A stretch of 64,000 nucleotides of DNA. Source: a bacterium. Lineage in GTDB: Bacteria; Auribacterota; Auribacteria; Auribacterales; Auribacteraceae. Numbering within the stretch: position 1 is the first letter of the stretch; every line of letters starts with the position of its first letter. The notes below the pieces were generated by a model. The model did not search any database and was not told the DNA's origin. It was given only the letters and a program-made list of their open reading frames with translations. A program made the position numbers and the translations under genes. The stretch is from contig JAHDNF010000012.1 of assembly GCA_018435605.1 (NCBI GenBank), forward strand, positions 72,895 through 136,894, given 5' to 3'. Below are positions 1 to 25,829 of this stretch, in pieces.

Positions 1-4
1 AACA

Positions 5-3000
5 GTGTTTAAGATTGACAAAAATTCACGTTCCGTTGTCGGTTATATTGAAAATATGACATTTGTTTCCGAGATACCGCAGGATATATCTAAACTGCCC
101 GCAGAATTTGAGAAACTGATAAGTACCGTAATGGCAAATGCTGAAACACGTAATGTCGGCCTTTTGCATCCGATACTTGACGGCGCGTTACGCAAAGTTC
201 TGCCGCCCGATGAAGTAGACCGCAGTATGATTGAAGTCGGTATCAGTTACGATGAAGTCGATTTGGTGACATTCCGTGTAGAACCTTATGCTGAAGGAAC
301 ACCTGCGAGTATCGTCTCAGCTGATCCTATGAGAATGTCTTATAGCGAATCGCCCGGAGCGTACGGCGATTTGTTTTCTATTGTCAGTACATTTACGGAT
401 CAGGCGCAGATGGATCGCATACGGGAAGATGACAACCGTCTACAGCTTCTTACTCTTTTTCACCGTCATGCGCAGGAACAGATACGGCAAGTGATCGAAC
501 TTCTTTACGATGCTTACGGATTAAGCCAATATCCAGTGGAACTGAATATAAAACTTGCGCCAGGACCGCTTGCCGATTCATTTTTTAGCGAAACGGAAGG
601 CTATAAACTGTACCTGAATGCTCATGCGTTCCGCTCTGCGGGTCTGTTATTTGCCCAATTGGAACATGAAATACGCCATGCTATGGTTAAACAGCAGGCA
701 CAATCTGCGCTTGAGTCGGTTATGCCGTCCGCTGAAATTACTCCGCGGATGGTCGATTTTATCACGGAAATGTACGTTGCTTTAAAAGAAATCCAACGCT
801 ACGACCAGTTCGGTCTCGATGCGGAACTTGGTGTTGCTACTAAAAAAGCCATTGAGGCAGTAGATAATCCTATTGATCCGCAAGGTGAATTTTACCAGAT
901 TACCCGTCTTGCCGGAGAACAACGGCGCGATGCGTTACTGGAATTAGTTGCCCGCAGGTTTTTTGTTGATGCCGATGCGCTACCGACACCTGAAGTTGTC
1001 ACGAATGCGGTAGCTCAGCTTGATATCCGCCTTTCGGCCATCGGTAAATTGGGTGATTTCAGCGTGTTTGTCAATGAAAAGGGACAGATTGTCCGTTTGA
1101 CTGAAGATGACCGTCAAGCTAATCTTGCGCGAGCTCAGAATCTTATAGATAACAAAGCGGCCTATATACCGAATCCGAAAACCGTTCTTATATCGCCGTC
1201 TGCCGTTATCGGGCATCTGGCAGAAATCAATGCCGACTCATCTATTCTCGGCGATAATATTACCATCGGACGCAAAGTTTCCGTCGGCAAGGGCGCTAAG
1301 ATTATATCCGACGGCGGTATCATAAATATTGACGAAGGCGTAGTTATAGACGATGGAGTTGTTATCCGCGCTAAAGTTGGCGAAACCATTGCTATCGGCG
1401 CTGGAACAAGGATACTCAAAGGAGCGTTAATAAGCGGTAATACTTCCATAGGCGAAAAAGCTCTTATTGACCAGTCGACACTTAAAAATGCCGCTGTTGC
1501 TAACAACACTCGAATTGTAGGCAGTGATGTATGGGGGCAGGCGGATAATCCGGTTATTATCGCACAAAACGCTCAGATTCTTTATTCTAGGTTGCGTTCG
1601 CTAGATAGAAGTATGGCGCAAACCGCCGATTTGCTGGAAGGCGGTGTGCCGTCCTCTCTATCTACTATTTTGACAGCGCAAAAGTATGTTGTCGATTCCT
1701 CACAAACCACAATCGGTTCGGGCACTGTTGTAGAAAAAGCGGAAATCATAAATAGTCAGATCGGAAGTAAAGCAACTGTTCGCGAAAATTCGCGTATAGT
1801 CCACAGCGTTATAGGAGATGGGTCTGTTGCGCGCGTTAATGCGGATATTAAGTTAACTTATATGGGGCGTGAAGTTGAGGTCGGTTCTGCTGTGGAAAGA
1901 TGTTATTTCGGGGACGGCGCGAAATCAGAACATCAAGGTTCCCGCCTTGAGCATCTAATCATGCCGAACGAGTATCCTGTAATCGACGCAAACGGAAATC
2001 TTGCACGAATACTTGTTCCTAATACATCTAATATTGGCGCTGGAACTATAGTGCAAAACAATACAGGAGTACCGATTATCGGATACAACCTGTTTACCGG
2101 TATCAATTCTAAGGTTGTTACCTCGGCGGATAATCCAACCGTTATTTATCCGTTTACATTGACCAAAGATACGACCGGCGGCGAATTGTTTCCATTCGCA
2201 TATTCTCAGCAGGTCGGTAAATCGATTGACGCTTGGATGCTGGACACTTATGTTGGAGCAGTTATCAATCACCATAAAAAGACATTGTCGCTTGCTAAGA
2301 AACTTGGATATCCGATGCACGATTTCGATCAGCTTTTCTCAGGTACCATGCGTCTTGCTGTTACAAAAGTGCAGAATAAACTTGATGAGTTGCGTAGTGA
2401 ATACGATACCGCTAATTTGCCGGGCAAACGTAGCGCCGAAACGATACAAAAAGATATCGATGCGTATAGTGTTGCATTTAATACGCTTAGCGCGCATCTC
2501 GAAAGCCGGTCGTGGGAACTGCAAAACGGACAGTTTGTCAACGGTGAGTTCGAATGGCATCCCGGCGACAAATGGTCTACTCCGGCGCTTAACGCTTTTA
2601 TGAAAATGAAGAATCAGGAATTGGAGAATTTCAAAAATATTTATACGGTTTTGCAGGAAAATTTGAATGTTCCGGATCAGTATGTGCCGGAATCATTTAG
2701 CGGAATGGCTGTCATGGAGACGGATGGAATCCGAGGAGTTGCCACCCCTGACAGGCTTATCGACGGTTCTCATGTAACGCCGGTGATGGGGTATAGACTT
2801 GGGTTGGTCGCGGCGTTGTATTCTGCGGCGCAGGGCAAAAATGAGATATATGTCGGCGGCGATACTCGTCCAAGCACTGACTATTTATTAAAACCCGTAA
2901 CGGATGCCGCCCGTAGTCTTGGTCTTACAGTCAAACATGTGCCGACAGCTATAGATCATACGCCCGGTGTGCAATATAAAGTCATGCAGGATGCTCAAGT

Positions 3001-6000
3001 AGGAGGCGGACTGGTGGTTACAGCGTCGCATAATCCGGCTAGGGATAACGGATTCAAGCTGTTGACGGAAACCGGTTCCAAGATTCCCGAACAATGGGAA
3101 AATATTGCCAATCGCATTGTTAACGCTAAAGACCTAGCCCATGAAATGGCGCAGGTCATAGAAGAGCTGGGTGGAACTGAAAAATTTCAGCCGTATCTCG
3201 ATAATCTTACACAAGGCAGAAAAGGTATGTTGCTCGACGCGCAAACTTCTGCTGATGAACAGTACGCTCAAGAAGTTGTCGACGCGCTGAAGATTCTTAT
3301 TCCTGCCGGGGCGCCTGCTACTACATTTACTATAGATACCGCCAGCGGAGCCGGCGTGCGGATATTGCAGACTCTTCAAAATAAATTGAATCAGATACCC
3401 AATTTTTCAATAGACTTAATCAATACCACCGGCGTCATAAATGAAGATCGAGGCGCGGAATATGTACATAAAAAACTCGCGAAAGATATAGCGGCAGGCA
3501 AAAAATTACCCGCTTGGCTTGACTCCGTTCGTGGTCAGGTTATCGGTACGCTGGACGGCGATGCGGACAGAAATCTGTTGTTGCGCCTAAATGACGACAA
3601 TACTCTTGAAGTGATTGACGGCGATAAGTTTGCCGCATTGAAAGCGTTTGTATTGCAAAAATATATGAAAGAAGCTGGCCTCCCTGACAGATTTAAAGTG
3701 GGAGCGGCGCAAACAGTTTTAGCTAACGTGGGTTCTGCAAGTTTCTTCGAACGCATGGGTATCGATGTTCAGGAAACCAAAGTCGGCGACAAATATGTTC
3801 GCGCGGCGGCTGAAGACTGGGCATACGGAAATACTGAAAAAGGGTTGCCGGCACACGGAGTAGCGGTTTACTATGAAGCCGCAGGACACGGATCGATCAT
3901 ATTTTCTCAGGATTTTATTGACGCGGTTAACGTAGCGCAACCCTCACCCGCAAAAGATGTATTGAGCGGAATAATTGCCATACAAAATATGGCAGGCGGG
4001 GACGGTATACGAAACCTATTGCTGTTCATGGCTTTAATGATGCGAGAAAACCTGACGTTCGACCAGTTGAACGATCCGGGCAATCTTTATGCCGAGATAC
4101 CTAAAGTCGAACTGGAAATGAAGGTCAAATATAAAAACAATGTTACATCAGTTGAAAATCTAGGTAAAGAGGTAACAGGCCCTGAAGATCTGGTAGTAGC
4201 GATTGCACAGTGGAAAGAACGGCTTGGCGATGGATATCGAATTATAATACGTCCTTCGGGTACATCGCAGAAAGTGCGCGTTCAGGTTGATGGCCCTGAC
4301 ACACAGTTAATTCAAGAAGCCGCTTACGGGTTGATGCAGTCGATTTATGACAGCCCCAATATTATAGGCGATCCGGCGGAACCCTTACCTAAAGATAAAC
4401 TCGCCGAAATAAAAGCCAATCTGCAGAAAGAACAGCAGACAAAACAGATAGCTCAGTTCCGGCAGGATAATCTTGCGCAAATAGAACAAACGGTTCGTCA
4501 GAATTTTAAAGAGGACGATCGCTATAAACCTATCGAGGTAACCGGACTGGCAGAAGTAGGCACCGATGGTATCCGAGGCAAAGCGGTTGCCGACCCTATT
4601 CTCGACAGCAAGCATATTACTCCGACCGTAGCGTATCGTATGGGTATAACTTCCGCTCTACACGCATGGGCGCAGGGAATGCCGGTAATACATGTAGCCG
4701 GAGATACCCGTCCGAGTACACCATATTTGATGGATGCGTTCATCGCAGGCGCACAGCAAATGGGCGTACAGGTACGTGTAGACGGGGTTAATCGGGTATC
4801 TTCTACACCGCAACTGCAGTTGTTTGCCCGTCAGGATGTTGTTACCGGCGCGGGCGGTATTATTACAGCTTCCCATAATCCAGCGCCTGACAACGGTATA
4901 AAATTGATCGACCATCAGGGCGGAAAAATATCTGCCCAATGGGAACAGATTACCAACGAAGTGGTCAACAGCTCCGACCTGCCGGCTACTATTGCCGGTA
5001 TAATCAGTACGTTCCAGACCAACGGACAGATCGACCGCAATAAAATTAACGTTGCTCTCGATACTCTCGGTAAAACGGGACAGGTTGTAATACGTGAGGA
5101 TGCCGCTGTTGCGCAGATCGGCAATAACCCTGCTTATGTAGAGAGAGTTACACAGACATTGAAAACTCTTTCTAAACTTGTGCAGGAAGAGTATCCGCAA
5201 CGGCGCGGCGAAGTTTTTTTAATCGACTCGGCAAGCGGGGCAGGCACGGCGGCGTTACAGCAAATAGCACAGCGGTTTAACGAAATGTATCAGGCAGGCG
5301 AAACTCATTATCAGATGCAGATCATCAATACCGATGGAGTAATCAACGAAGAAAAAGGAGCGGAATTCGTTCATAAAGAATTGGGCAAAGAAATAGCCGC
5401 CGGCAAACCGCTTCCTCACTGGATTCAGGAGCATGTCGGTGTTGAAATAGGTACTGTTGACGGAGATGCGGATAGAAACCTGTATTTCAAGGTAAACGAA
5501 GCGGGTGAACTGGAAGTTGTCGACGGAGATAAATTCGCGGCTTTAAAGGCAAAAGTACTCGATAAATATCTAAAGGAACTCGGGCTTGATTCTCAATTTC
5601 AGGTCGGCGTAGCCCAGACGGTGCTCGCTAACCTCGGTTCTAAAGGGTTCTTTGACCGCATGGGCATTCAGGTGCAGGAAACTGCAGTGGGTGATAAGTA
5701 TGTCCGTGCGGCGGCGCTTGATTGGGCAGTTGATCACGGTGTTGCCGTATATTATGAAGCGGCAGGGCATGGTTCTATTGTATTTAATGATGATTTTCTT
5801 AATACCCTGCGTCAGTATCAGCCGCAAACTTCTCAACAAGTCAGAGCTAAAGCAATACTCGACAGTATAGTAAATCTGCAAAATGAAGCCGGCGGTGACG
5901 GCATTATGAATCTGTTGCTGTTTAAGGCGTTAATGGAACTTGAAAATCTGAGTTTCGACCAGTTGAACAGCGATCAATTCCTGTACCGCGAATTACCTAA

Positions 6001-9000
6001 GACTGAACTGGAATTGAAAGTCGCTCATAAGGAAAATGTTACCTCTATAGAAAACCTCGGCAAAGATTTGACCGGACCGCGGGATGTGGTTGACTTTGTA
6101 GCTCGTACTAAGGCGGAACTGCGCGCGGAACTGGACGCAAGACTAGCCCGCGGTGAATTGACCGAAGCCGATTTACCGGTAAAAGAATTCAGGGTTATCG
6201 TTCGCTATTCCGGAACATCTCCTAAGGTACGAGTGCAGGTTGACGGGCCTGTTGCGGATTTGGCTCAGAAGTCGGCATATCAGATCATGCAGGCAATTTA
6301 TGACAGTGAAGCGGTAAAAGGCGATCCTGCAGAACGACGTCCTATGGATAAATATGAGGAGATCGTATCCGCACAGAAACAAAAAATGCTCTCCGAATTG
6401 ACCTTGACTATGGAAGACGGTGCGCGGTTTGTACACGGTTGGGACTTTTTAAATGAAAACGAACGGGTTGCAATTTTGCTCGATCTTTCAAGAAATGGAT
6501 TCACAGCTGATAAACTGGAAAAATTGATGGAAGTACATGCAAAAGGCGGCGAAAAAGCTATCGAAGCGCCTGCGCAGAAGGCAACTTTCGAAGCTCCGGA
6601 CATGAAGGATATTTCAGAAGCAAATATAGACGAACGTCAGAGGGCTATAGTGCTTGGCGCGTCCCAAGATAACGTCGATCGATCCGCATTGGTTGTCATT
6701 GCGGGCGGAGACGGCGGGCGATTGCTTAGCAATATGGGATTTACCGAGGAAGAAAAGTCTGCGTGGAGCAAACCGACAATTCCTGTAACGGCGGTAGCGA
6801 AAAAACCGCCGCTACAGCGTATCATAGAAACCATGGCAAAGGTTCGCGCCGACCGTCAAAGCGAAATACCTATTGTCGTGGTGGTAGGCCCGAAAAGCCG
6901 CGGCCCCATAGAAACATTTTTAAAGAACAATGACTATTTTGGGATTGAAAACATTGTTGTCTTAGAGCAGGGGAGATATCCGGTTCTAAGAACTATAGAG
7001 CAGGGTCAACCGCCTAAACTAATTCTAACTCCCGATAAAACCGTCGAGTACAATCCAGACGGTACGGGCGGTATTGTGGATGTCATGGCTACACCTGTTA
7101 CGGTACAGGGTAAACCTTTTACATCGGTCGTCGATTATCTTGATTCGGTCGGCCGGGACAAAGTGATTTTCTGGGGTGGAGACGTGCCCGGTCTGACTTC
7201 AGACTTATTCTATGGTATTCTCGGTGTCAGTAAAGGGGTTAGCGGCACGGAAGACGTCGATGTTGTCGGTTTGGCTTACGCCAGCCAGAACAAAGGCCTT
7301 GGTACCATGGTTATGATGAACGGCCAGACTGTAATGGTCATAGAAAATGTCGACCGTTCAAGCTATCTGGGTCTTGAAGAAGCTGACGACACAACCGACG
7401 GCAAAATGGGATTGCCGCGCAATAGCGGCGGATATATGATGTCCCTTGCGGCTATCAAAGACGTTATACAGAATTTTCCGGTGCACCTACAGGCTGAAAA
7501 AGATATAAACGGTTTTAATCCGGAAACCGGCGAACAGATACTCAAGGCCGATAAAATGGAAAAATTTTTCCCGGATATCTTTCCAATAGTGACTCAAAAT
7601 CCGCAACGATCGGTAATTATCGGTGTTTCCGATGAAAAAGATATGGTTCCCCAAAAATCCATACCGCAAATGCACAAAGCCAGTATTGAATTGATACAGC
7701 AGGATAAACAACGACTGCAACAGCAATATGGAGTAAATATACACGAAACAGCAGTGCTTGATGTGTCACCATTGTTTGAAGGAAACATCGGGAGTAATGT
7801 TTTTCTGGGTGAAAACGCGCAACTCTATGTTGGGCGCAACGTTTCTATCGGAAGTAATGTTTTGATAGGTAAAGACACTACTGTCCGAGGCGAGAATATT
7901 GTTTTGGGCAGAAATGTTGTACTGACAAATGGAAGTTCCGTTATGGTTGAAGGAACCGGTCAGCTGGTAATAGAGGACGGAACTATCGTTGACGGAAACG
8001 TCTCCATATTTGTACGTGACGGAGAACGTGTGGTAATAGGACCAAAATCGCAGATTCTTAACGATACTGTTATTTCGGGAGTAGTTACAATCGGCGAACG
8101 CGCTCAGCTGGATACTGCCAGAATATCTTTTGCCGTATTGCAAAATGGCGTCAGAGTCGAAAATAGTACGCTCGAGGGCGTTTCCGCGGCGTTGCCTGTT
8201 GTTCTGGGTAATGATGTGGTTGTGTCAGGCAGATCATTGTTAACAAATCTCCTTAAAGCGAAAGAATGGAGTTTTCTTGAAGCGGGCGATATACGCGACG
8301 ATTTTACGCCGGTGGACGATTTCGTGTTACGAAGATATAAAGTCGAATCACATCAAACAGTTATAGGTGACGGCACGGTCATTCACGACGCCCGAATAAA
8401 AAATACGAAAATAGGAAGTAACTCAGTTGTAGGACCGGGAGTAGCTATCGAACATAGCGATATCGGCAATGACGTACAGGTGCTAAAAGGCGCGAATATC
8501 ACAGTATCTAAAATTCTAGATAATGCGGTCATAGCGAGCGAAGTCAGCAAGAGTTTTCTTGGTGTCGGTTTCGTTACCGAAGGCACAAGAACATATTTGA
8601 GCACCATTGCCCCCAACGAATTTATCCTTGCAGACGAACAAGGTAATTTGCGGGTTGCGCAATTACCTAACCCTACTGTAATCGGCAATGGGACAGTATT
8701 CGCTAATTACGGAGGTAAACCGTTGCCTGACCTGAGCGGAAGCCAGAAAGGAACTTCGGTGATTTATGCGTCTTCCATCAGGGATAACGTGGTCAATCTG
8801 TATGATCATCCTGATGTTGCGTTGGTTGATCTGGTCAATCAACCGAATGTAACGGTTATTTATCCATTTTCCAAAACGAACAACGAGGTATGGGGTACAG
8901 TTTTGCCGTTCACGATAGCAAGTTCGCTTAGTCCGTTGGCACATCAGATCGGCGCTGTGCTTGATTCTGATCCGGCGATGATTGTGGATATGGTCAGAAG

Positions 9001-11287
9001 AATGCATGATATATTGCCTGATGACCGCAAAGATATGGCCAAACAGGTAGTCGAAGGAAGTTTATGGTTGGGTGTAAAACTGGTTAACCAACAGCTTGAC
9101 GATGTCAATAAACGTCTTGAGAAAAGACCGGAAGATAAAAAATTATTGCAACGTAAAGCACAACTCGAACAAGGGCTTGCCGTTTACCTAAAACATCTTG
9201 ATGGACGATGGGCGGATCCGTTGGCAGTCGATCATTCCGCGATAGCTATGAGCAACTACGATCAATCGCGTCAGACTGTAGATTATGTGCGCGTATTCGG
9301 TAATCCTGATGTTCTGACTTTGGAAGACAAAGCCATAGATGCCATGAGAACCGATCCTGCATTGCTCGATCAAATAAAAGCTATTTTGGGCGATATGGAT
9401 TTGGCGCGATTTCCGGAGCAGAAACAGCGTTTTGATGCGGCATACGGTCCTCAAGGAACACCTCAGCAACAGGTTAAATTATTCTCCGATATCGCTAAAG
9501 AACGTCTAGCCTCGATTAGGGATATACTTAGAGCGAGGTATCGCGGAGTTGACAGCTTGACTTTTGTTATAGCGCTCGGTTCGGAACGACTTGCAGAACG
9601 CAATGTAGGAGGCGACAGACGAATTGTTATCAACGCTCATGCCTTGCGGTCGCCGGCATTGATGTTTTCGCAGGCGGAACATGAATTGTTCCATGAATTG
9701 CTCGAGCACGCTGTTTCAGAAACCATCGAATCGAGCAATACTAAAAATAAAGGGTTGATTACCGCTATATTTCAGCGCGATATAATTGCGGAAGGTGTTG
9801 CTGTAGAAGATGCTGAAGCGGAAGCGAGCAGGCGTGTGGATCATTTTTACGCTAAGTTTAAAGAGTTCATGACTGAAGATTTTATTATCAGCAAAGAGTT
9901 GGATCGTATAAATATGATGGCTCAATCGGTTCGCCAATCCATTATCGCAATATTGCGCGACCCAGCAAATCCCATAGATCAGGGAGCGCGATTCGCAGAT
10001 CTCATTGAACAGTCATATAATGTGAGTCCCGCTAAAAAACGGCAATTGGTACAGGATTATATTCTTCGCAATTATGACGCTATGGGGGTAGTCGGCAGTG
10101 TGTTATATAAAATGCGCCAGTTGCGAACTACAGTTGATGAATCCCGCCAGATAGGGTTGTCTATTACCCCTTCCATGTTGGATTTGCTAAATATTGTCGA
10201 CAACGGTAAAAAACCTGATTCAACCAACTTTGCCGGCGCTGTAGCGGTAGATGGAGAACATTATTTTGAGTCGGCAATACGTCCGTTTATGGTAAATGAC
10301 AGTTTTATAGTGGATGTTGATACTCAGGATAGTCTTACGGCGTATATTACCGAAGTTCCCGCAACGGATATCATACGGAGTGAACTGCACGATATATCCG
10401 CGATTGATTTCGATGTATTCGGCGAATCGAAAATAGCCGATTCCAATAGTCTGTTCTTGTCTGACGCATTGGGAAAATTACGCGAAAACGCCCAAGCAAA
10501 CGGGCGGTCGGCAAAAATATTGATATTCTCTTTGCGCAAAGATGCCGATGAAATCAGGGAATACCTTGATTTCCGCGGTGTCGATCTGGCTACAGTGGTA
10601 ATCGTAGACAGAAACGATATCATAACTATGGCAGGAACCAGCGTTCAGATAGACGATGCTTATATGGAAGTTTACACCGTTCTTGAAGCGGCGGCAAAGG
10701 CTAATGACTATACTGCACTCGATGATATTTATGGAAAAATAGACAATAACAATCCGAGCGCTCTTGCGTTCGGATCCAAATTGATAAATGTTTTGCTTAA
10801 AACATTAAATAAAGCGGCTAACATACCCGGCGTAGATGCTACGGATGTAAAGCTTGCAGTTAGCAAACAGGCACTTGTGAAAGTTGCTGTATCCAATAAT
10901 ATTCGGACAATTTCTTGGGATACTATCGGACAGGATACTCTTAGGGAAGGTGATTTGATTGAGGCCGGCATTGATAATCTGCTACTTCTTCAAGTTCTCG
11001 AACCGGGCAGTGAAGTTCCCGGATCTCTGGTAATTACCGCCGTGGCGCCTGACAAGGTAATCAACGGTATCAAGGTGCACGAGATATTCACCAAAGAACA
11101 AAACAGGCGCAATGAAGCGGGTATAACCGAACCGATAACTATTGAGTTTATGGTTGATGCGCTGGGCATAAACTTTCTTACCAAAGAAGATATAAAAGGT
11201 ATTGCGGTAAAAGCGCCCAAACGCGAAATTGACCGTGAGTTTTCCGAAAAATTGCGTAGACAGCAGTTGTTCGATCAGTCTGCTTAA
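5..11287 (+). CDS. Giant multidomain protein, >=3760 aa, probably 5'-partial: HExxH module, LbH, 2x phosphohexomutase, UDP-sugar pyrophosphorylase (UAP1/UDPGP-like), LbH, HExxH module, C-terminal domain shared with the next gene
   Basis: Uninterrupted 11.3-kb ORF. The frame is open to the window edge (codon 2-4 is ACA) and no RBS is visible. Motifs: HEIRH (665), SNIGAGT (~2027), ETDGIRG/TASHNP/DGDADR/YEAAGHG/RPSGT (2714-4350), the same set again (4559-6310), IAGGDGGRL/PDGTGG/KMEKFFPDIFP (6698-7585), ANYGG (8702), HELFH (9680). Confidence 0.93.
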   Translation: MFKIDKNSRSVVGYIENMTFVSEIPQDISKLPAEFEKLISTVMANAETRNVGLLHPILDGALRKVLPPDEVDRSMIEVGISYDEVDLVTFRVEPYAEGTPASIVSADPMRMSYSESPGAYGDLFSIVSTFTDQAQMDRIREDDNRLQLLTLFHRHAQEQIRQVIELLYDAYGLSQYPVELNIKLAPGPLADSFFSETEGYKLYLNAHAFRSAGLLFAQLEHEIRHAMVKQQAQSALESVMPSAEITPRMVDFITEMYVALKEIQRYDQFGLDAELGVATKKAIEAVDNPIDPQGEFYQITRLAGEQRRDALLELVARRFFVDADALPTPEVVTNAVAQLDIRLSAIGKLGDFSVFVNEKGQIVRLTEDDRQANLARAQNLIDNKAAYIPNPKTVLISPSAVIGHLAEINADSSILGDNITIGRKVSVGKGAKIISDGGIINIDEGVVIDDGVVIRAKVGETIAIGAGTRILKGALISGNTSIGEKALIDQSTLKNAAVANNTRIVGSDVWGQADNPVIIAQNAQILYSRLRSLDRSMAQTADLLEGGVPSSLSTILTAQKYVVDSSQTTIGSGTVVEKAEIINSQIGSKATVRENSRIVHSVIGDGSVARVNADIKLTYMGREVEVGSAVERCYFGDGAKSEHQGSRLEHLIMPNEYPVIDANGNLARILVPNTSNIGAGTIVQNNTGVPIIGYNLFTGINSKVVTSADNPTVIYPFTLTKDTTGGELFPFAYSQQVGKSIDAWMLDTYVGAVINHHKKTLSLAKKLGYPMHDFDQLFSGTMRLAVTKVQNKLDELRSEYDTANLPGKRSAETIQKDIDAYSVAFNTLSAHLESRSWELQNGQFVNGEFEWHPGDKWSTPALNAFMKMKNQELENFKNIYTVLQENLNVPDQYVPESFSGMAVMETDGIRGVATPDRLIDGSHVTPVMGYRLGLVAALYSAAQGKNEIYVGGDTRPSTDYLLKPVTDAARSLGLTVKHVPTAIDHTPGVQYKVMQDAQVGGGLVVTASHNPARDNGFKLLTETGSKIPEQWENIANRIVNAKDLAHEMAQVIEELGGTEKFQPYLDNLTQGRKGMLLDAQTSADEQYAQEVVDALKILIPAGAPATTFTIDTASGAGVRILQTLQNKLNQIPNFSIDLINTTGVINEDRGAEYVHKKLAKDIAAGKKLPAWLDSVRGQVIGTLDGDADRNLLLRLNDDNTLEVIDGDKFAALKAFVLQKYMKEAGLPDRFKVGAAQTVLANVGSASFFERMGIDVQETKVGDKYVRAAAEDWAYGNTEKGLPAHGVAVYYEAAGHGSIIFSQDFIDAVNVAQPSPAKDVLSGIIAIQNMAGGDGIRNLLLFMALMMRENLTFDQLNDPGNLYAEIPKVELEMKVKYKNNVTSVENLGKEVTGPEDLVVAIAQWKERLGDGYRIIIRPSGTSQKVRVQVDGPDTQLIQEAAYGLMQSIYDSPNIIGDPAEPLPKDKLAEIKANLQKEQQTKQIAQFRQDNLAQIEQTVRQNFKEDDRYKPIEVTGLAEVGTDGIRGKAVADPILDSKHITPTVAYRMGITSALHAWAQGMPVIHVAGDTRPSTPYLMDAFIAGAQQMGVQVRVDGVNRVSSTPQLQLFARQDVVTGAGGIITASHNPAPDNGIKLIDHQGGKISAQWEQITNEVVNSSDLPATIAGIISTFQTNGQIDRNKINVALDTLGKTGQVVIREDAAVAQIGNNPAYVERVTQTLKTLSKLVQEEYPQRRGEVFLIDSASGAGTAALQQIAQRFNEMYQAGETHYQMQIINTDGVINEEKGAEFVHKELGKEIAAGKPLPHWIQEHVGVEIGTVDGDADRNLYFKVNEAGELEVVDGDKFAALKAKVLDKYLKELGLDSQFQVGVAQTVLANLGSKGFFDRMGIQVQETAVGDKYVRAAALDWAVDHGVAVYYEAAGHGSIVFNDDFLNTLRQYQPQTSQQVRAKAILDSIVNLQNEAGGDGIMNLLLFKALMELENLSFDQLNSDQFLYRELPKTELELKVAHKENVTSIENLGKDLTGPRDVVDFVARTKAELRAELDARLARGELTEADLPVKEFRVIVRYSGTSPKVRVQVDGPVADLAQKSAYQIMQAIYDSEAVKGDPAERRPMDKYEEIVSAQKQKMLSELTLTMEDGARFVHGWDFLNENERVAILLDLSRNGFTADKLEKLMEVHAKGGEKAIEAPAQKATFEAPDMKDISEANIDERQRAIVLGASQDNVDRSALVVIAGGDGGRLLSNMGFTEEEKSAWSKPTIPVTAVAKKPPLQRIIETMAKVRADRQSEIPIVVVVGPKSRGPIETFLKNNDYFGIENIVVLEQGRYPVLRTIEQGQPPKLILTPDKTVEYNPDGTGGIVDVMATPVTVQGKPFTSVVDYLDSVGRDKVIFWGGDVPGLTSDLFYGILGVSKGVSGTEDVDVVGLAYASQNKGLGTMVMMNGQTVMVIENVDRSSYLGLEEADDTTDGKMGLPRNSGGYMMSLAAIKDVIQNFPVHLQAEKDINGFNPETGEQILKADKMEKFFPDIFPIVTQNPQRSVIIGVSDEKDMVPQKSIPQMHKASIELIQQDKQRLQQQYGVNIHETAVLDVSPLFEGNIGSNVFLGENAQLYVGRNVSIGSNVLIGKDTTVRGENIVLGRNVVLTNGSSVMVEGTGQLVIEDGTIVDGNVSIFVRDGERVVIGPKSQILNDTVISGVVTIGERAQLDTARISFAVLQNGVRVENSTLEGVSAALPVVLGNDVVVSGRSLLTNLLKAKEWSFLEAGDIRDDFTPVDDFVLRRYKVESHQTVIGDGTVIHDARIKNTKIGSNSVVGPGVAIEHSDIGNDVQVLKGANITVSKILDNAVIASEVSKSFLGVGFVTEGTRTYLSTIAPNEFILADEQGNLRVAQLPNPTVIGNGTVFANYGGKPLPDLSGSQKGTSVIYASSIRDNVVNLYDHPDVALVDLVNQPNVTVIYPFSKTNNEVWGTVLPFTIASSLSPLAHQIGAVLDSDPAMIVDMVRRMHDILPDDRKDMAKQVVEGSLWLGVKLVNQQLDDVNKRLEKRPEDKKLLQRKAQLEQGLAVYLKHLDGRWADPLAVDHSAIAMSNYDQSRQTVDYVRVFGNPDVLTLEDKAIDAMRTDPALLDQIKAILGDMDLARFPEQKQRFDAAYGPQGTPQQQVKLFSDIAKERLASIRDILRARYRGVDSLTFVIALGSERLAERNVGGDRRIVINAHALRSPALMFSQAEHELFHELLEHAVSETIESSNTKNKGLITAIFQRDIIAEGVAVEDAEAEASRRVDHFYAKFKEFMTEDFIISKELDRINMMAQSVRQSIIAILRDPANPIDQGARFADLIEQSYNVSPAKKRQLVQDYILRNYDAMGVVGSVLYKMRQLRTTVDESRQIGLSITPSMLDLLNIVDNGKKPDSTNFAGAVAVDGEHYFESAIRPFMVNDSFIVDVDTQDSLTAYITEVPATDIIRSELHDISAIDFDVFGESKIADSNSLFLSDALGKLRENAQANGRSAKILIFSLRKDADEIREYLDFRGVDLATVVIVDRNDIITMAGTSVQIDDAYMEVYTVLEAAAKANDYTALDDIYGKIDNNNPSALAFGSKLINVLLKTLNKAANIPGVDATDVKLAVSKQALVKVAVSNNIRTISWDTIGQDTLREGDLIEAGIDNLLLLQVLEPGSEVPGSLVITAVAPDKVINGIKVHEIFTKEQNRRNEAGITEPITIEFMVDALGINFLTKEDIKGIAVKAPKREIDREFSEKLRRQQLFDQSA

Positions 11288-11319: not shown

Positions 11320-11359
11320 AACGACAGGATGGACGATTGTTTCCATCCTGTCGTTTTAT
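11320..11359 (+). terminator. Intrinsic terminator after the giant ORF1
   Basis: Perfect 14-bp inverted repeat aacgacaggatgga / tccatcctgtcgtt with an 8-nt loop, running into a short T tract about 30 nt after the stop codon. Confidence 0.8.
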
Positions 11360-11431: not shown

Positions 11432-11440
11432 TGGTATAAT
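11432..11440 (+). promoter_or_regulatory. Extended -10 sigma70-type promoter for ORF2
   Basis: TGGTATAAT 64 nt upstream of the ATG; strong RBS aaggagg at ~11491-11497. Confidence 0.5.
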
Positions 11441-11503
11441 ATACTTAACATAATATAAAAAATTATCTCTTTAAAAACTATACCACCACAAGGAGGAAAT
11501 ACG

Positions 11504-14500
11504 ATGTTGAAACGTACGGAAAACCGAGGATTGCGAAAGTGTTTGAGCTTTCTACTGATCCATTTGCTACTCATAAGTCAACTGCCGTATCTGTACGCTA
11601 CGGTTCCTTCCAATGTGAGGTATAACGAACGATACGGACGTACGCGAGATTCTTACGACGGCGATAACGGAAAGATGATCATCCATATTCAGGATGCCCA
11701 TTGTATATACGAAGCGCAGAAAAACATTGTCGGTATTGTACGTGATTTATACAATAATCATAATGTGCGTCTTATTACTGTTGAAGGCGCGGACGCATAT
11801 TTCAATGCCGACGAATTGGCCGCGTTTCCAGTACAGTCTATCAAAGATGATGTAGCAGAATTTTTTTTAAAAAACGGTCGAATATCAGGTGCAGAGTATT
11901 TGTTAATACAGAATGACTTGCCTCTGGCATTGCGCGGGGCAGAGAACAGGGACTTATACATCGAAAACTATAACTCATTTTTGAATGCAATGCCCAAACC
12001 CGGCGATAAAGTTATGACGGCTATAGATATGCTGGATTCCGCCTTAGAAACATTGAAAATATTGATGCTCAACGATGATCTGCGTGAACTGGATGTTTTT
12101 CATCATATGCATTCCAATGGGCAGATTGAGTTTATAGACTACGCAAATTATCTGATCGGCAAGGCGGGTTCGGTTGACATATCTTTTGAAAATATGCCGA
12201 ATATACAGATATTGATGCAGTCGCAGGAACTGGAAGAATCAATAGATTTTGCTACCATTCATATCGAAGTCGGGGAATTAATTGATGCTGTCGCTGATAT
12301 AATCGACCGCGAGCAGTTGACAGAACTTCTGAATAAAAATTTGTTCTACAAGATAGGCAGAATTCCTCCTTATGTGTTTTTCAGTTTTTTACAGGAAATT
12401 TGTAACAAAAATAATATAGCTATTTCGGCTTACCCCAATCTAAATACCTACTGTGAGTATCTGGGATTATATGATTCGATCGACGATGTGGCAGTCGTTT
12501 CAGAATTGTATGACCTTGAATCTGATGTCATGGAAATGATGTTTGCCGATCCGATACAGAAAGAGCTTATTAGTGTTTCACAGGATATTTCATTGCTACG
12601 TAAGTTAATGTCACTGAAAGTATCTAAGCTGGAATTGAAACGTTTTCAGGCTGATACCGATAAGTTTACCGAACAACGTTTTCTGGCGTTCCTAAAGAAA
12701 ACCGTGCCTACTTATGATATCCCGTTCAATTTTGATTATGATTTTAGCGCCATAAGTTTGAAATTACCTATGATAGATAATTTTTATAAAGTTGCAGTAA
12801 AACGCAATGAAGCACTTATTGAGAATACCTTAGCTGAAATGGATCTTGAAGATTCGAATATTGCCGTTTTAATTACAGGCGGATTTCATACCCAAGGCAT
12901 AACGGATATTCTTAAAGACGAAGGCATTTCCTACAGAGTTATATCGCCGTCAATTACCGAACAGCCGGAAACAAGTTATTATCTGACACGCCTGACCGGT
13001 ATGCCGACAGACATTGAAGATAGATTGACAGCAAATAAATTGCAGATACCGCTCGTTCTTGCAGATCCTGCCATTATCCCTGATGTGGCGGCGGCAGAGA
13101 ATTTTAAAACGGCGTTCAAAACTCTTATGGAAGCGCATCCCGAAGCCGTTAATCTCGAACAAATTTTGGCAGGCAAGCCTACCGGATATACGCCTACAGT
13201 TACATTCACGGATGCGTTTATGATCGATAACATTCGTTATCTTTCTTTTAACATTGAAGGTCGCAAGATGTTTTTAGCCGTCGGCGCGAAAGATATGAAA
13301 ACAGTTGCAGGAGTACAACCTACAGTTATCGGAGAGTATGCATACGGTTTTATACAGGAAGACACATTTGTCGCGCAGGCGCAAAATCCGAATAGGCGTA
13401 TGATCGAAAAACAAACCGATCTTAGAATTACAATAGAGAATGCGCTGGCCAGAGGTGAGAAAGTCGACTTAACTGAATCGCAATTGGTATGGAATGAACA
13501 AAATAACGCCGATTTTCAAGATATGCTTGCTCGAGGATTTCTTGTAAAACAAGCTGAAGGGTCTTATTTGCCGTCGATCGGCTTTTTGCTGAATTCGAAT
13601 TTGTCTGCGCTGGTAGTTAAACCGCGGGTAGCGCAGATCGATTCTCTCGATGCCGCCAATAGAGAGTTTTTTGCGAGGCGCGGCATAAAACGTATTGAAG
13701 TTTTTTCAAACCAGACCGATTTGACCGCTCAAGATGTGCAGTTGCTACAGCAAGGTCTTTCCGATTTGATGTCCAATAAAAAGATCGAACTGACCAACGG
13801 CAAAGTAGTCCGTGCGGTGGTAGATGCCCAAACCGGATTTATGCAGATTTACAGTATGGCGCCACAGGGGCCGTTGCAGATCAGGCCGCAAATTGTCATC
13901 AATCAGCAGATATTTGATGCGATGCTTCCTCAAGCGGATCGTATACAGGTTACCTCAGCGTTGCAGTCGCAACGTCAAGGTTATATCAGTATAGACGCTA
14001 TGACACGTACAGTAACGCTTTATGAACTAAACCAGGAAGGTTTGCGTTCACCTGTAGGCCCTCCTACGGTTTTACCTCCGAATATTACATCTGCAGATGT
14101 GCTGGCGTCAGTACTTGAAATGAGAAAAAGGGCTGAAGAGGCAGGTATCGGATTGATCGGCTACGGTAACCCCGAAGCAGGCTACAGCATCGCTTTCGAG
14201 AACCTTAATGAACTTTTGGACGCAGTTGAAAACTCTCCGCAGGTAAAGGCATTTCTCAATGTGCACCGTCTATTGTCGGTAGTGCCGTCCTTGCAAGATA
14301 TAGATTTGACCGGTAAACAAGATTTTAATACGCTGATGGATTATCTTTACAGCCTTATGCCCGACCCGAAAACCTATGATGACCGGATCACCTGCGCGGC
14401 CGCGTCTGCCGCGTTACTGCACAATGTTGTCAAAATAGACGGCATCCCGATCAATTTTTTATATTTACAGCGTAAATGGTTGCTGGAAAGAATGTTGCCT

Positions 14501-17221
14501 TTAATTGACCAACGTATGAAAGGCGCTATACCAATTAATTCGGAAACCAAGGAGCCGGAATACAGCTTGTATGCCATTCAACAGGCTTATACGTTGATGG
14601 GACAAACTTCTCAAGCTCTGAAAACCGATCTTGCAGGATTGCGGAATTTACTGAAAAAATTGCCTGTCGGCGAATCGGTGATGGTACACTTACACATTGC
14701 CGAAAGAAAACACTTCATTGGAATTCGTAGTACCGATCAAGGATTTGAGGTGCAGGACCTTACTATGACCAAAGATAAAATTATAAAACCTAGGCGTGAG
14801 TTTGTATTGATGTCGTTGGACGCCATTATAGATCGATACAGCAGGGCGTTCACCGGAAACATATTGGTCAGCGAGAACCTTCCTGATGTTACCGCTCCTG
14901 TGCTGGCTCAGTTTATTTCAGATGGTACATTTAAGATACTTGATGTTGACGAGCAACTGGCGGCTGTTGGGGCTACATCTCATTCTATGGAAATGCTGGT
15001 ATTTCATCAAAAGGATGCTTCTACTCCGTTGATTCTCGCTCAGGAAATGATTCAGTCAATGGCTCCGGAACAGCCTGCGGCAGGTATCGGAGGATATTCT
15101 ATGCGAATGGCATTTCGGCGTCCTACTCATAAATATCTGATGCAACCTCCTGATGATGATGAGCCGATTGAAATGGTAACTGTAGAGATGTTTTTTGATG
15201 TGACTTTTAATCCTGTTACCAAAGAATTACAAGCTAAAGTCAGACAGGTTGTAGACGGCAGGACAACATATCTGACGGTATCTCCTACAGGTGAAATTAT
15301 ACCGACTTTGGCTCCGACACAACAAGAACTTGACGCAATGAATCTTACGCTCGAGCAGTGGGAAGAACGCTTTGTAGTCAGATTTTCTGTCGATCAAATT
15401 ATCGCTATTTTTGGCGAAGATGTAGCTGAAGCGATCGGGATATACCGAAAAAGAATCGCGCGATTGACTCCTGAAAATGTCGATGAACATATTCTTGACA
15501 TTTTCAACATCATAACCGCGAAAATGCTTGAAGATATGATCACTCCGGAACTTGTGTTAACGCGGATTACCGGATATGTCAAAAACGCATCCGATTTTCA
15601 ACCGGAAGTAGTGCGCCGCGTCGATCTCAATAATAGTTATGATAATTTAGCCTTGAATAAGATACGAGAAGCGCTCGGTATGATCAATCTTGAGCGGGAC
15701 GATGTTCTGCTTCTTGTCCGCCAAGGTTCTTTTGAAATGGATGACCAAGGTAAAGTGTCCGTTGTTCCCGAACGTATGCTTGATTTGCTTGCCACAATAC
15801 AGAAAACCGATCTGACGACAATTACTCAAGAAGGTATATATAACGAACTAGTAGGACAGGCTTTAGTCAAATACCGTGACGGCGCGTTAATTGACGCGGT
15901 TGCGCAAGGGTTGCCGGCAGACGCCAGAAATATCGTTGAATCATTATTCGTAGAAAATTATTCCGGCAGTAAAGATCTTCAGAATATTAATGACATTGTC
16001 CGCGAAGTGATAGCCAAAGCATATACCAACCGCTTGATACCGGATGCAACATCGACATTTTTCTCCGGTGAACAGTGGCCGGTTGTAATAAATGCCATAG
16101 AGTTGATTTTAAACGATATAGCGCCGGAGCTATTGACGGTAATTAATCCGACTACAGATACTCCGCAGGCAAATATAACTAGAATTATATCGCAGATGCA
16201 AATGGAACTCGGTCTGCAGGTTACGCCGGATATCCGGAATGCGGTAGCCAATAAAGAAGAAACGCGCTATATATCTTCTGTTATATCGGACAAAACAGCG
16301 TCTGCAATAACGTATCTTAATGACCGAATCGCACGAGTTGGGCTCATCGCCGCTATGACCGAAGGACAAACGCTTAATCAACGTATCAAAGCTGATATGG
16401 ATATTGCCAATCAGCGCGACATGCAGAAAATGGAACTGATTCCGAACATAACGGCTATAAATGCTGATTTCTTCGATACAAAAGATGATATAAATGATTC
16501 TCGAACAATCGGCGTGACACAGAAAATACGTCAGGCGGCGGCTGATCCGAAAAAACTGTTTGTCATATACTCGCTCTCTGATGATGATGCTATGATTAAA
16601 GCCAAATTGGCACCAAAGGGCATCACCGAGGATATGGTTACTATTGTTAGCGCCGTCATGTTCGAAAAAGCGGCCGCTGAAGACCCTGCTATAAAATATA
16701 TGCCCGGTCATGCTACGAATATTCTTATGCTACCGCGAATAGTAAAGCAAGCCCGAGGTATCGCTGATAACGTCGATCTGAGAATGATGGATTTTTCTAT
16801 TCTCGATAATAATCCGGATGTGGTGCAGGTAGCGCTTGATAATCTGGCTTCTGTTTTTGAAGTACCTGCCGGACTGGACGATTCGCAACTTACTGAAGGA
16901 CAGCTAATCGAGACAGGAATCAGCGCTCTTGAACTGGTTGAAATGCTTGAACAGATGGGTGAACCGAACGCTACGTTACCGGAAGATTTACTTATCACTT
17001 ATGTTTCCGAGAAAAACAGGTATTTGCATGATGCGTTCGTAAACTTGAAAGAAATACATAATACCGATGAAATCAGTATTAAGCTTCTGCTCGGATACCT
17101 AAAAATGACCAGTTTAAGCAAGGAAGATTTACGTGGTGTGCGTGTCAAACGTAAAGTTACTGTAAATAAGGGATTTATAGAGAAACTGCAAGCGCAGAGA
17201 GCGCTCGACATATCAGCGTAA
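11504..17221 (+). CDS. Giant exported protein, 1905 aa: signal peptide, TIKI/ChaN/EreA-like N-domain, C39-like cysteine peptidase, C-terminal domain shared with ORF1
   Basis: RBS aaggagg. Basic-then-hydrophobic N-terminus ending YLYA. Motifs HIQDAH, VEGA, RN, TGGFH (aa 61-462); TCAAASAALL (C964), KHFIGI (H1070), VQDL (D1085); tail EKLQAQRALDISA. Confidence 0.92.
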   Translation: MLKRTENRGLRKCLSFLLIHLLLISQLPYLYATVPSNVRYNERYGRTRDSYDGDNGKMIIHIQDAHCIYEAQKNIVGIVRDLYNNHNVRLITVEGADAYFNADELAAFPVQSIKDDVAEFFLKNGRISGAEYLLIQNDLPLALRGAENRDLYIENYNSFLNAMPKPGDKVMTAIDMLDSALETLKILMLNDDLRELDVFHHMHSNGQIEFIDYANYLIGKAGSVDISFENMPNIQILMQSQELEESIDFATIHIEVGELIDAVADIIDREQLTELLNKNLFYKIGRIPPYVFFSFLQEICNKNNIAISAYPNLNTYCEYLGLYDSIDDVAVVSELYDLESDVMEMMFADPIQKELISVSQDISLLRKLMSLKVSKLELKRFQADTDKFTEQRFLAFLKKTVPTYDIPFNFDYDFSAISLKLPMIDNFYKVAVKRNEALIENTLAEMDLEDSNIAVLITGGFHTQGITDILKDEGISYRVISPSITEQPETSYYLTRLTGMPTDIEDRLTANKLQIPLVLADPAIIPDVAAAENFKTAFKTLMEAHPEAVNLEQILAGKPTGYTPTVTFTDAFMIDNIRYLSFNIEGRKMFLAVGAKDMKTVAGVQPTVIGEYAYGFIQEDTFVAQAQNPNRRMIEKQTDLRITIENALARGEKVDLTESQLVWNEQNNADFQDMLARGFLVKQAEGSYLPSIGFLLNSNLSALVVKPRVAQIDSLDAANREFFARRGIKRIEVFSNQTDLTAQDVQLLQQGLSDLMSNKKIELTNGKVVRAVVDAQTGFMQIYSMAPQGPLQIRPQIVINQQIFDAMLPQADRIQVTSALQSQRQGYISIDAMTRTVTLYELNQEGLRSPVGPPTVLPPNITSADVLASVLEMRKRAEEAGIGLIGYGNPEAGYSIAFENLNELLDAVENSPQVKAFLNVHRLLSVVPSLQDIDLTGKQDFNTLMDYLYSLMPDPKTYDDRITCAAASAALLHNVVKIDGIPINFLYLQRKWLLERMLPLIDQRMKGAIPINSETKEPEYSLYAIQQAYTLMGQTSQALKTDLAGLRNLLKKLPVGESVMVHLHIAERKHFIGIRSTDQGFEVQDLTMTKDKIIKPRREFVLMSLDAIIDRYSRAFTGNILVSENLPDVTAPVLAQFISDGTFKILDVDEQLAAVGATSHSMEMLVFHQKDASTPLILAQEMIQSMAPEQPAAGIGGYSMRMAFRRPTHKYLMQPPDDDEPIEMVTVEMFFDVTFNPVTKELQAKVRQVVDGRTTYLTVSPTGEIIPTLAPTQQELDAMNLTLEQWEERFVVRFSVDQIIAIFGEDVAEAIGIYRKRIARLTPENVDEHILDIFNIITAKMLEDMITPELVLTRITGYVKNASDFQPEVVRRVDLNNSYDNLALNKIREALGMINLERDDVLLLVRQGSFEMDDQGKVSVVPERMLDLLATIQKTDLTTITQEGIYNELVGQALVKYRDGALIDAVAQGLPADARNIVESLFVENYSGSKDLQNINDIVREVIAKAYTNRLIPDATSTFFSGEQWPVVINAIELILNDIAPELLTVINPTTDTPQANITRIISQMQMELGLQVTPDIRNAVANKEETRYISSVISDKTASAITYLNDRIARVGLIAAMTEGQTLNQRIKADMDIANQRDMQKMELIPNITAINADFFDTKDDINDSRTIGVTQKIRQAAADPKKLFVIYSLSDDDAMIKAKLAPKGITEDMVTIVSAVMFEKAAAEDPAIKYMPGHATNILMLPRIVKQARGIADNVDLRMMDFSILDNNPDVVQVALDNLASVFEVPAGLDDSQLTEGQLIETGISALELVEMLEQMGEPNATLPEDLLITYVSEKNRYLHDAFVNLKEIHNTDEISIKLLLGYLKMTSLSKEDLRGVRVKRKVTVNKGFIEKLQAQRALDISA

Positions 17222-24560: not shown

Positions 24561-24618
24561 TTGATGCGAAGCGCATTATATCGGTTTTAATTACTGCATT
24601 AAGCGAAATGAAAAAATC

Positions 24619-25029
24619 ATGACTTTATCTTATATAGTTGATTTACAAAATATTTTCGATTATTTCAACCCCATATTTTTCAATAACGCGCTCCATTGTT
24701 CCATAAGATGGGGAAAGCGGTATAACAAACTTCGCAGGCGCATTATACGGTTAGGCAGTTTCAATACGAAAACAAATACCATACGGATTAATCCTGCGCT
24801 GAATTCGGATGAGATTCCTTCGTATGTAATCCGCTATGTTGTATACCACGAGATGGCGCATGCGTGGTGTCTGAATATTGATCCCGATATGCGGTTTCAT
24901 AACGGTGAATTCAAACAAAAAGAACGCTTATTTCCTGAATTTGATCAGGCTCGAAAATGGCTAGACGAGAACAAAACTGTTTTTTTTGCTAAGCAGTCGG
25001 GATGCCGAGTATGGCCGTTGTTTCGGTAA
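24619..25029 (+). CDS. SprT-like / YgjP(M48)-like metallopeptidase domain protein
   Basis: IRWG...RLGSF...IRINPAL...YVVYHEMAH...FH..EF motif series. Confidence 0.75.
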   Translation: MTLSYIVDLQNIFDYFNPIFFNNALHCSIRWGKRYNKLRRRIIRLGSFNTKTNTIRINPALNSDEIPSYVIRYVVYHEMAHAWCLNIDPDMRFHNGEFKQKERLFPEFDQARKWLDENKTVFFAKQSGCRVWPLFR

Positions 25030-25808: not shown

Positions 25809-25829
25809 TTTCTTGATACAGGATACCTG

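Follow-up and report, generated by a model that had tools for sequence, protein, structure and literature searches.

A nearly cysteine-free giant protein of Candidatus Auribacterota with a Sec-type signal peptide and a predicted eukaryote-type UDP-GlcNAc module

We analyzed a stretch of 64,000 nucleotides, here called the window, from a bacterium of the family Auribacteraceae (GenBank assembly GCA_018435605.1, contig JAHDNF010000012.1, positions 72,895 to 136,894). Its left end is taken up by a giant gene that encodes a protein of 4,672 residues. In this protein, two predicted phosphohexomutases of the eukaryotic AGM1 type and a predicted uridylyltransferase of the UAP1/AGX1 type are flanked by left-handed beta-helix (LbH) units and zincin-like HExxH domains. 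The chain begins with a segment that has the features of a Sec-type signal peptide, followed by a cap domain found in many other giant proteins, and it contains almost no cysteine. The reading that we favor, and that we regard as an even call, is an exported polyenzyme purged of cysteine, with an active GlcNAc-phosphate/UDP-GlcNAc module, which may be processed by its own domains.

Results

The giant gene is real and conserved

Within the window the reading frame spans positions 2..11287 of the plus strand, on which all segments of the giant described below also lie, and it runs off the left edge. The window has a G+C content of 42 to 47%, and at that composition the length of the frame, 3,761 codons, excludes a chance origin. 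The translation is identical in 3,761 of 3,761 residues to residues 912 to 4672, the C-terminal 80%, of a protein of 4,672 residues (P0002); subtracting 911 from a P0002 residue number gives the window residue. The original prediction of a single polypeptide of at least 3,760 residues was thus borne out by the length of the frame, the identical product on record and the collinear orthologs described next, and no stop codon splits the frame anywhere within 2..11287. Its placement of the start at a GTG at coordinate 5 was wrong: since P0002 has 911 more N-terminal residues, this GTG is not the start codon, and the true start lies 911 codons upstream of the window.

Eight full-length orthologs of 4,671 to 4,698 residues, all from independent assemblies, are collinear with the giant from end to end at 52 to 76% identity, and one further genome has an orthologous locus at 46% identity to it. 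A collinear giant is present in at least six independent metagenome-assembled genomes (MAGs) of Candidatus Auribacterota, including Candidatus Auribacter fodinae SURF_26, and one of the orthologs sits on a 517-kb contig. The 16S rRNA gene of the window (54522-56094) shares 97% identity with its counterpart in the closest MAG and 88 to 91% with those in the others. A single contig of the closest MAG carries both the 16S rRNA gene and the giant gene, at a spacing similar to that in the window. Collinear independent orthologs and this kept spacing make a misassembly or a hidden frameshift very unlikely. The metagenome-type source of the assembly would favor an artifact, or a chimeric or pseudogenized frame, but an 11.3-kb frame without a stop codon, an identical 4,672-residue product already on record, eight collinear full-length orthologs from independent assemblies and a syntenic neighborhood leave this explanation with a negligible probability. 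The frame is a real gene whose protein is conserved across Candidatus Auribacterota.

The core resembles the eukaryotic late hexosamine enzymes

Searches with Pfam, NCBIfam and PDB sequences confirmed the order and coordinates that had been predicted for the domains, namely, an LbH unit, phosphohexomutase 1, phosphohexomutase 2, a nucleotidyltransferase and a second LbH unit. Comparison of P0002 with itself revealed three internal duplications (P0002 numbering): residues 1113-1150 match 4118-4155, residues 1314-1708 match 3527-3946 at 25 to 31% identity, and residues 1765-2400 match 2374-3050 at 38 to 55% identity. The layout is a near-symmetric cassette that reads HExxH domain, LbH unit, two AGM1-type mutases, UAP1/AGX1-type uridylyltransferase, LbH unit and HExxH domain, followed by an unannotated region and a C-terminal cap (C-cap). 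Conservation among orthologs peaks in the last ~130 residues and in the enzyme segments, where mean pairwise identity is 66 to 69%, compared with 47 to 59% in the rest.

Phosphohexomutase 1 (2669..4393) is of the AGM1 type (phosphoacetylglucosamine mutase-like), and phosphohexomutase 2 (4529..6358) is its tandem paralog at 38 to 55% identity. The four-domain architecture of AGM1 is complete in both: PF02878, PF21404 (1.3e-46), PF02880 and PF00408 each match twice, and PF02879 matches weakly. In the PDB, mutase 1 comes closest to fungal AGM1 (4bju and 2dka; E 2e-30), with an additional resemblance of its domain I to GlmM of bacteria. Shared with AGM1 are the AGM1-specific domain III (PF21404) and the sugar loop E-A-x-G-H-G. 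In a 10-sequence ortholog alignment, the loops TASHNP, DGDADR and EAAGHG of both mutases, RPSGTS of mutase 1 and RYSGTS of mutase 2 are invariant or nearly so. All four functional loops are thereby present in each mutase, T-A-S-H-N-P for the phosphoserine, D-G-D-A-D-R for the metal, E-x-x-G-H for the sugar and R-x-S-G-T for the phosphate. Against the NCBIfam glmM equivalog TIGR01455 the giant scores 226 bits summed over five stretches, below the cutoff of 447.55.

Downstream of the mutases, a helical region (6359..6658) aligns with the N-terminal helices of AGX1/UAP1: phmmer alignments to PDB sequences start at query residues 30-43 opposite AGX1 residues 8-33, and the AlphaFold2 (AF2) model has helices there with a predicted local distance difference test score (pLDDT) of 70 to 85. 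The following segment (6659..7768), a putative sugar-1-phosphate uridylyltransferase by its phmmer matches in the PDB, matches UDP-GlcNAc pyrophosphorylases (UAP1/AGX1) only, with E values of 4.6e-5 to 6e-4 over ~230 residues, and has no Pfam match at E values up to 10. Three stretches line up with motifs of UAP1: AGGDGGRL with GGxGxRL, NPDGTGG with PDGxGG and KADKMEKFFPDIFP with K-x-E-K-F, the last of which holds the catalytic lysine. Across orthologs, AGGDGGRL, SKPTIPV, NPDGTGG and KADKMEKF are invariant. The segment thus shares with UAP1/AGX1 the GGxGxRL signature and the lysine of K-x-E-K-F, but it is too divergent for the Pfam model PF01704.

The two LbH units are 25 to 31% identical to each other. 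LbH-A (1139..2398), made of hexapeptide repeats and a conserved C-terminal extension, matches the Pfam models Hexapep, LbH_EIF2B and Hexapep_GlmU, and a PDB profile search returned generic LbH matches only. LbH-B (7769..9118) matches Hexapep (8e-17), LbH_EIF2B and LbH_GLGC, and part of it is modeled by AF2 as beta-helix strands with a pLDDT of 70 to 90. Against the GlmU equivalog the units score ~40 bits and fail to reach the cutoff of 367; their best models are of the noncatalytic eIF2B/GMPPB/GlgC type, and a candidate histidine of LbH-A (SEHQG) is not retained in LbH-B. The LbH units are perhaps more likely to be trimerization or scaffold elements than acetyltransferases. The original prediction had seen mutase, pyrophosphorylase and acetyltransferase as consecutive steps of the hexosamine pathway. 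Its mutase and pyrophosphorylase steps form a coherent set with conserved motifs and stand, and the acetyltransferase role of the LbH units is unproven. As a query for stand-alone relatives, LbH-B recovered only one ortholog fragment. Two other signal-peptide-bearing giants, P0012 (4,077 residues) and P0013 (4,868 residues), share only the LbH unit of ~400 residues with the giant (34% identity to LbH-B); they have SIS domains and, instead of the N-terminal cap described below, a twin-arginine-like start (IRRFFAxLT).

By its sequence, the core is best described as a predicted eukaryote-type module of GlcNAc-phosphate mutase, present twice, and UDP-GlcNAc pyrophosphorylase. As the catalytic loops are invariant, the predicted reaction runs between hexosamine 6-phosphate, hexosamine 1-phosphate and the UDP-sugar. 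The core would interconvert GlcNAc-6-P (or GlcN-6-P), the matching 1-phosphate and UDP-GlcNAc, which is the late hexosamine route of eukaryotes.

A signal peptide and a cap domain precede the enzymes

The 911 residues left of the window consist of a signal peptide, an N-terminal cap (N-cap) of ~500 residues and an unannotated region; GlmS, a sugar kinase or a GNAT enzyme, which had been suggested to lie upstream, is not among them. P0002 begins with MKLVKTRMGTVLLSSIMMMLAASSLLA. In all orthologs the N terminus shows the features of a Sec-type signal peptide: an n-region rich in K and R, then a short hydrophobic core and an A-x-A-like end. This segment is the only hydrophobic stretch in the 4,672 residues.

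The N-cap (P0002 residues ~30-560) carries the motifs IHIQDAHC ... VEGA ... RD ... GGFHTxG, in which D, H, E, R and H are invariant. It has no Pfam match, and a profile search of PDB sequences came back empty. An AF2 model from a 30-sequence alignment (pLDDT 84.6) has an alpha/beta core with a helical insertion of ~300 residues and places the invariant His/Asp, Glu, Arg and Gly-Gly-x-His at strand ends. The top Foldseek matches are the erythromycin esterase EreC and BcR135/136 (E 0.05, probability 0.72, TM about 0.2). PF04187 (ChaN/Tiki) weakly matches 8 of the 30 N-cap members, with a best E value of 0.0018, and PF05139 also matches weakly. An alpha/beta core with invariant strand-end residues would link the N-cap to the Tiki/ChaN/GumN/TraB-PrgY/erythromycin esterase proteins; the subsignificant scores and the ~300-residue helical insertion set it apart from them, as does its constant place in giant proteins, where it follows immediately on the signal peptide. 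The N-cap probably belongs to the Tiki/ChaN/erythromycin esterase superfamily, although this is not proven. Several members of that superfamily are extracytoplasmic. The helical insertion was also considered as a component of an alpha-pore-forming toxin and rejected, since the Foldseek matches (E 0.3 to 2, probability <0.1) are not significant.

The unannotated region that follows the N-cap extends into the window, where its end (2..523; P0002 912-1085) has a mean pairwise identity of 47% and neither Pfam nor PDB relatives. Profile searches of PDB sequences found nothing for the region from 561 to 1310 or for the C-terminal 700 residues.

The giant belongs to a very large superfamily

A search with the N-cap gathered 103 proteins of 2,600 to 8,000 residues from Auribacterota, Omnitrophota, Elusimicrobiota, Chlamydiota and Verrucomicrobiota. 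Behind the cap, these proteins carry glutamine synthetase, SecA, PEP-utilizing enzymes, glycogen phosphorylase, isocitrate lyase, malate synthase, TIM, PGK, GAPDH, NAD-synthesis enzymes, Lon, kinases and methyltransferases. The N-cap is always N-terminal, and a hydropathy script found a signal-peptide-like segment before it in 89 of 96 members. Against 1.84 billion representatives, an N-cap profile matched 10,246 clusters, 7,206 of them with E values up to 1e-30; in the best 150 of the 10,246, the cap starts at residue ~3-104, mostly ~35-80. Five Auribacterota genomes (G001 to G005, the sources of the related loci L001 to L005) each have 27 to 42 N-cap open reading frames (ORFs) of up to 14,329 residues. 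In the closest of them, G001, the 33 listed N-cap ORFs add up to ~108,000 residues, roughly 8% of 4.2 Mb. The giant is not a one-off fusion: N-capped multienzyme proteins form a very large superfamily, to which it belongs.

Cysteine is depleted and selectively kept

Only 1 of the 3,761 residues of the giant in the window is a cysteine (0.03%). The other 28 ORFs of the window have a mean cysteine content of 1.48%, a rate that would predict ~56 cysteines in the giant. Depletion extends to the capped superfamily, whose median is 0.17% and several members of which exceed 7,000 residues without a single cysteine. Where cysteines are kept, they can be catalytic: P0099 (3,732 residues) has four in total, two of them in the GAPDH motif SCTTNC, and P0108 retains the thioredoxin motif WCGPC. 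Catalytic cysteines that are kept while others are lost argue for active enzymes under selection against dispensable cysteine.

Other cysteine-purged giants, P0083 and P0064 among those examined, have few cysteines, and these stand in closely spaced pairs. At 25002-27628 the window has three consecutive ORFs with 3.3 to 5.2% cysteine, in sharp contrast to the giant; the second opens with a CxxxCxxC-like motif typical of radical-SAM enzymes.

From its N terminus and its scarcity of cysteine, the giant is somewhat more likely than not to be exported. Sec would carry it across the membrane, so that it would act outside the cytoplasm of the producer, whether in the periplasm, on the surface or in another cell or compartment, and its nonessential cysteines would have been purged because of export.

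A different account of the enzyme-like domains is that they are noncatalytic: in a giant that serves in adhesion or at the surface, they would bind ligands or have a structural role, for example by recognizing nucleotide sugars or sugar phosphates. Both folds, LbH and nucleotidyltransferase, are indeed reused as scaffolds in eIF2B and in GMPPA-type proteins, and the best Pfam matches of the LbH units are of the scaffold class (LbH_EIF2B, GMPPB_C). This account also gains from the divergence of the nucleotidyltransferase beyond the reach of any Pfam model and from a GlmS-like module, encoded by some relatives next to the giant (see below), that has no catalytic cysteine. It is opposed by the mutase loops and the pyrophosphorylase signature, which are invariant across organisms of 88 to 97% 16S rRNA identity, by the catalytic cysteines that other members of the superfamily selectively retain, and by conservation within the giant, which is highest in the enzyme segments. 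We consider it improbable that the domains lack catalytic function.

HExxH domains flank the core, and a C-terminal cap closes the chain

HExxH domain A (524..1138) is a zincin-like domain of ~200 residues with the motif LEHEIRH, and it is homologous to HExxH domain B (9536..10138), which has the motif AEHELFHE; in B, H4138, E4139, H4142 and E4143 are invariant in 10 orthologs. The 12 copies of the two domains, taken from six species, agree without exception in E-H-E-x-x-H, E114, E121, R124 and N-P-x-D. One HExxH member has a faint DUF5700 match (E 0.013). The zincin-like HExxH domains, the hydrolase-like N-cap or both might cut the precursor and free the enzyme core. To judge from these motifs, processing of the chain by its own domains is conceivable but on the unlikely side. 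In P0019, a capped giant of 2,772 residues with a glutamine synthetase payload, an HExxH domain (755-829) lies between the cap and the enzyme.

The giant ends in the C-cap (10889..11287, including the stop codon), a segment of ~130 residues that closes with ...LFDQSA. With a mean identity of 69%, it is the best-conserved nonenzyme segment. It is shared only with the protein encoded by the downstream partner gene and was not found in other capped giants, even after profile iteration.

A capped partner gene lies downstream

The partner gene (11504..17221, plus strand) encodes a protein of 1,905 residues with its own signal peptide, an N-cap and a C-cap. By BLASTP, its N-cap is 34% identical to that of the giant over 513 residues (E 9e-83), and the C-caps match over the last ~120 residues (E 2e-10); the 1,200 residues in the middle have no Pfam match. 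In all related loci that extend far enough, the partner lies downstream of the giant, which it directly adjoins in four of five. In L001, the locus of the closest relative, a Mutator-family transposase (24283-25488; PF00872, 3e-52) that is absent from the window separates the two. As a pair of adjacent capped genes, giant and partner make up a conserved unit. No other conserved neighbor was found among the related loci, so that the locus cannot be linked to any secretion apparatus.

In two deeper-branching relatives (L003, 24411-32999; L004, 20194-29049), the partner gene is ~1,000 residues longer and has a GlmS-like insert with amidotransferase and isomerase (SIS) parts (E 6e-26 to GFAT1 and Escherichia coli GlmS); a longer, GlmS-bearing partner is also present in the genome of a third relative. 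The insert keeps RWATHG, and its amidotransferase part has no cysteine and thus no nucleophile for the use of glutamine; it may rely on ammonia instead, or function as a deaminase. A GlmS-like module, of which the original prediction had said that it may lie upstream in the same polypeptide, is therefore part of the system in L003 and L004, but it lies downstream, on a separate polypeptide, and is absent from the window.

Directly 3' of the giant gene, a terminator-like hairpin of 13 bp followed by TTTAT can be read from the sequence (11321..11359, plus strand); the T-run rule of a consensus scan did not call it. The partner gene is preceded by TGgTATAAT (11432-11440), which is an extended -10 element, and by AAGGAGG (11490-11496), a strong ribosome binding site; the two genes may be transcribed separately. 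Farther downstream the window has a gene for an NHL-repeat beta-propeller protein (17381-18322; 313 residues, including a signal peptide, and faintly matched to PEP-CTERM), a gene for an M16 (insulinase-type) peptidase (20856-23675; 939 residues, with an N-terminal hydrophobic segment) and a complete bacterial rRNA operon with 16S, tRNA-Ile(GAT), tRNA-Ala(TGC), 23S and 5S genes (54522-59698). The M16 gene and a TPR gene, but not the NHL gene, are also found beside the gene pair in L001.

Stand-alone hexosamine enzymes in relatives

We searched for stand-alone hexosamine enzymes in the genomes of the five relatives, G001 to G005. Four of them encode canonical GlmS (830 to 850 bits) and MurA. 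G001 encodes a divergent GlmU-like protein of 497 residues, and the other four have ORFs of 500 to 518 residues with similar matches to the GlmU model. As the giant's pathway is therefore a second, divergent copy for the GlmS and GlmU steps, these proteins rule out the giant as the only hexosamine pathway at these two steps. Candidates for GlmM in G001 are a PgcA/PGM2-like protein of 611 residues and a divergent protein of 638 residues, with similar ORFs of ~600 residues in the other four genomes; G003 alone has a PMM/PGM-type protein of 434 residues that falls just under the archaeal GlmM cutoff. Of the stand-alone genes whose presence the original prediction had left to be checked, these genomes thus have one for a GlmU-like protein and none for a canonical GlmM.

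Discussion

Two possible scenarios place the giant on different sides of the membrane. The original prediction had read the fusion as a covalent metabolon. Its coherent set of fused enzymes holds, whereas the cytoplasmic location that it assumes is challenged by the signal peptide, the scarcity of cysteine, and the stand-alone GlmS and GlmU-like proteins encoded elsewhere in the genomes of relatives. In its membrane-tethered form, this scenario would have the N-terminal segment act as an anchor at the inner membrane, with the fused mutases, the uridylyltransferase and the LbH units, taken as acetyltransferases, channeling hexosamine phosphates in the cytoplasm to UDP-GlcNAc for peptidoglycan, lipopolysaccharide or exopolysaccharide. 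In its favor are the coherence of the enzyme set, the invariance of the catalytic motifs and, in some relatives, the GlmS-like module that the partner gene encodes. The substrates are confined to the cytoplasm, and with no canonical stand-alone GlmM in the five genomes the giant may fill the mutase step. Yet the n-region is rich in K and R and no second transmembrane segment follows, so that the positive-inside rule puts the bulk of the chain outside, and the h-region is as short as in signal peptides that undergo cleavage. The extreme depletion of cysteine would be unexplained in a cytoplasmic enzyme, and the GlmS-like module of the partner has no cysteine nucleophile for glutamine use. Moreover, SecA, Lon, kinases and glycolytic enzymes behind the same cap are hard to square with the channeling of envelope sugars. 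Overall, we regard a tethered cytoplasmic metabolon as unlikely, if a serious contender.

Several points weigh against the alternative that we prefer, an exported and possibly self-processed polyenzyme. We know of no supply of UTP, sugar phosphates or acetyl-CoA outside the cytoplasm, and an exported UDP-sugar pathway would therefore have no obvious substrates. Since no canonical GlmM reaches the family cutoff in G001 to G005, the giant could be the cell's own hexosamine mutase, a role that requires the cytoplasm. The signal peptides were called by eye and with a hydropathy script rather than with a trained predictor, and the assignment of the N-cap to the Tiki/ChaN/Ere proteins is weak. As for processing, an HExxH profile has no significant relative in Pfam or the PDB, and no cleavage sites are known in the giant. 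The AF2 model of the nucleotidyltransferase with LbH-B, built from six sequences only, has a pLDDT of 51, and most of its nucleotidyltransferase part lies below 50. Finally, no machinery for secretion, delivery or processing is conserved beside the gene pair.

Among solved structures, the three enzyme domains of the core are closest to eukaryotic AGM1 and UAP1/AGX1. The giant differs from these in being bacterial, fused and nearly free of cysteine, with a duplicated mutase, LbH and HExxH flanks and a signal peptide. With bacterial GlmM and GlmU it has in common the pathway steps, a GlmM-like mutase domain I and weak LbH matches to the C-terminal part of GlmU; in contrast to them, it scores far under the equivalog cutoffs, its nucleotidyltransferase is of the UAP1 type, and the acetyltransferase residues could not be mapped.

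Giant proteins have been noted in PVC-related lineages generally (PMC12057145), and a study of Auribacterota from Ace Lake makes no mention of proteins of this kind (PMC9324843). Those of Omnitrophota have many enzyme domains, phosphoglucomutase included, and mostly a signal peptide or a transmembrane segment, and their function is unresolved (West-Roberts et al. 2023, 10.1101/2023.11.21.568195; 10.64898/2026.06.07.730766). Like the class 1 giants of Omnitrophota (10.64898/2026.06.07.730766), the giant is a single signal-peptide-bearing chain tiled with enzyme Pfam domains, from the same PVC-related radiation; it differs in its Auribacterota origin, in its size (4,672 residues versus 10,000 or more) and in being devoted to a single coherent pathway. 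We found no mention of an N-terminal cap, cysteine depletion or Tiki/ChaN in the texts of 10.1101/2023.11.21.568195 and 10.64898/2026.06.07.730766, and the literature searched yielded no description of a shared N-cap, a cysteine purge, an HExxH-flanked hexosamine cassette or a capped gene pair.

Self-processing polyproteins, both those of viruses and large modular exported bacterial proteins, offer another comparison: they too are long exported chains with protease-like flanks and variable payloads behind a conserved head. Unlike them, the giant carries housekeeping-type enzymes and no toxins, its processing is only predicted, and no homology to them was found. A more far-reaching and rather doubtful idea is that the N-cap and the Sec signal peptide define a system that spans the superphylum (Auribacterota, Omnitrophota, Elusimicrobiota, Chlamydiota and Verrucomicrobiota). 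Such a system would export active, cysteine-purged enzymes of central metabolism as giant polyproteins. Their destination would be the cell of a prey or host organism or, within the producer, a separate compartment enclosed by a membrane, and built-in proteases would cut them there; the giant would be its hexosamine/UDP-GlcNAc module.

If the core is active, the giant would be a single-chain bacterial version of the eukaryote-type route from GlcNAc-6-P to UDP-GlcNAc, and in some relatives the complete pathway would be spread over two adjacent capped genes. Being small and coherent, it is a tractable entry to a huge family, for which Pfam has no model, of signal-peptide-bearing, nearly cysteine-free proteins made of housekeeping-type enzymes. 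Giant genes of the PVC-related radiation have been reported several times, and the literature searched offers no mechanism for them. Capped giants take up a sizeable share of the genome in several poorly known phyla, and export and HExxH-mediated cleavage of such enzymes would constrain hypotheses on the lifestyles of these uncultured bacteria, be it predation, parasitism or compartmentation.

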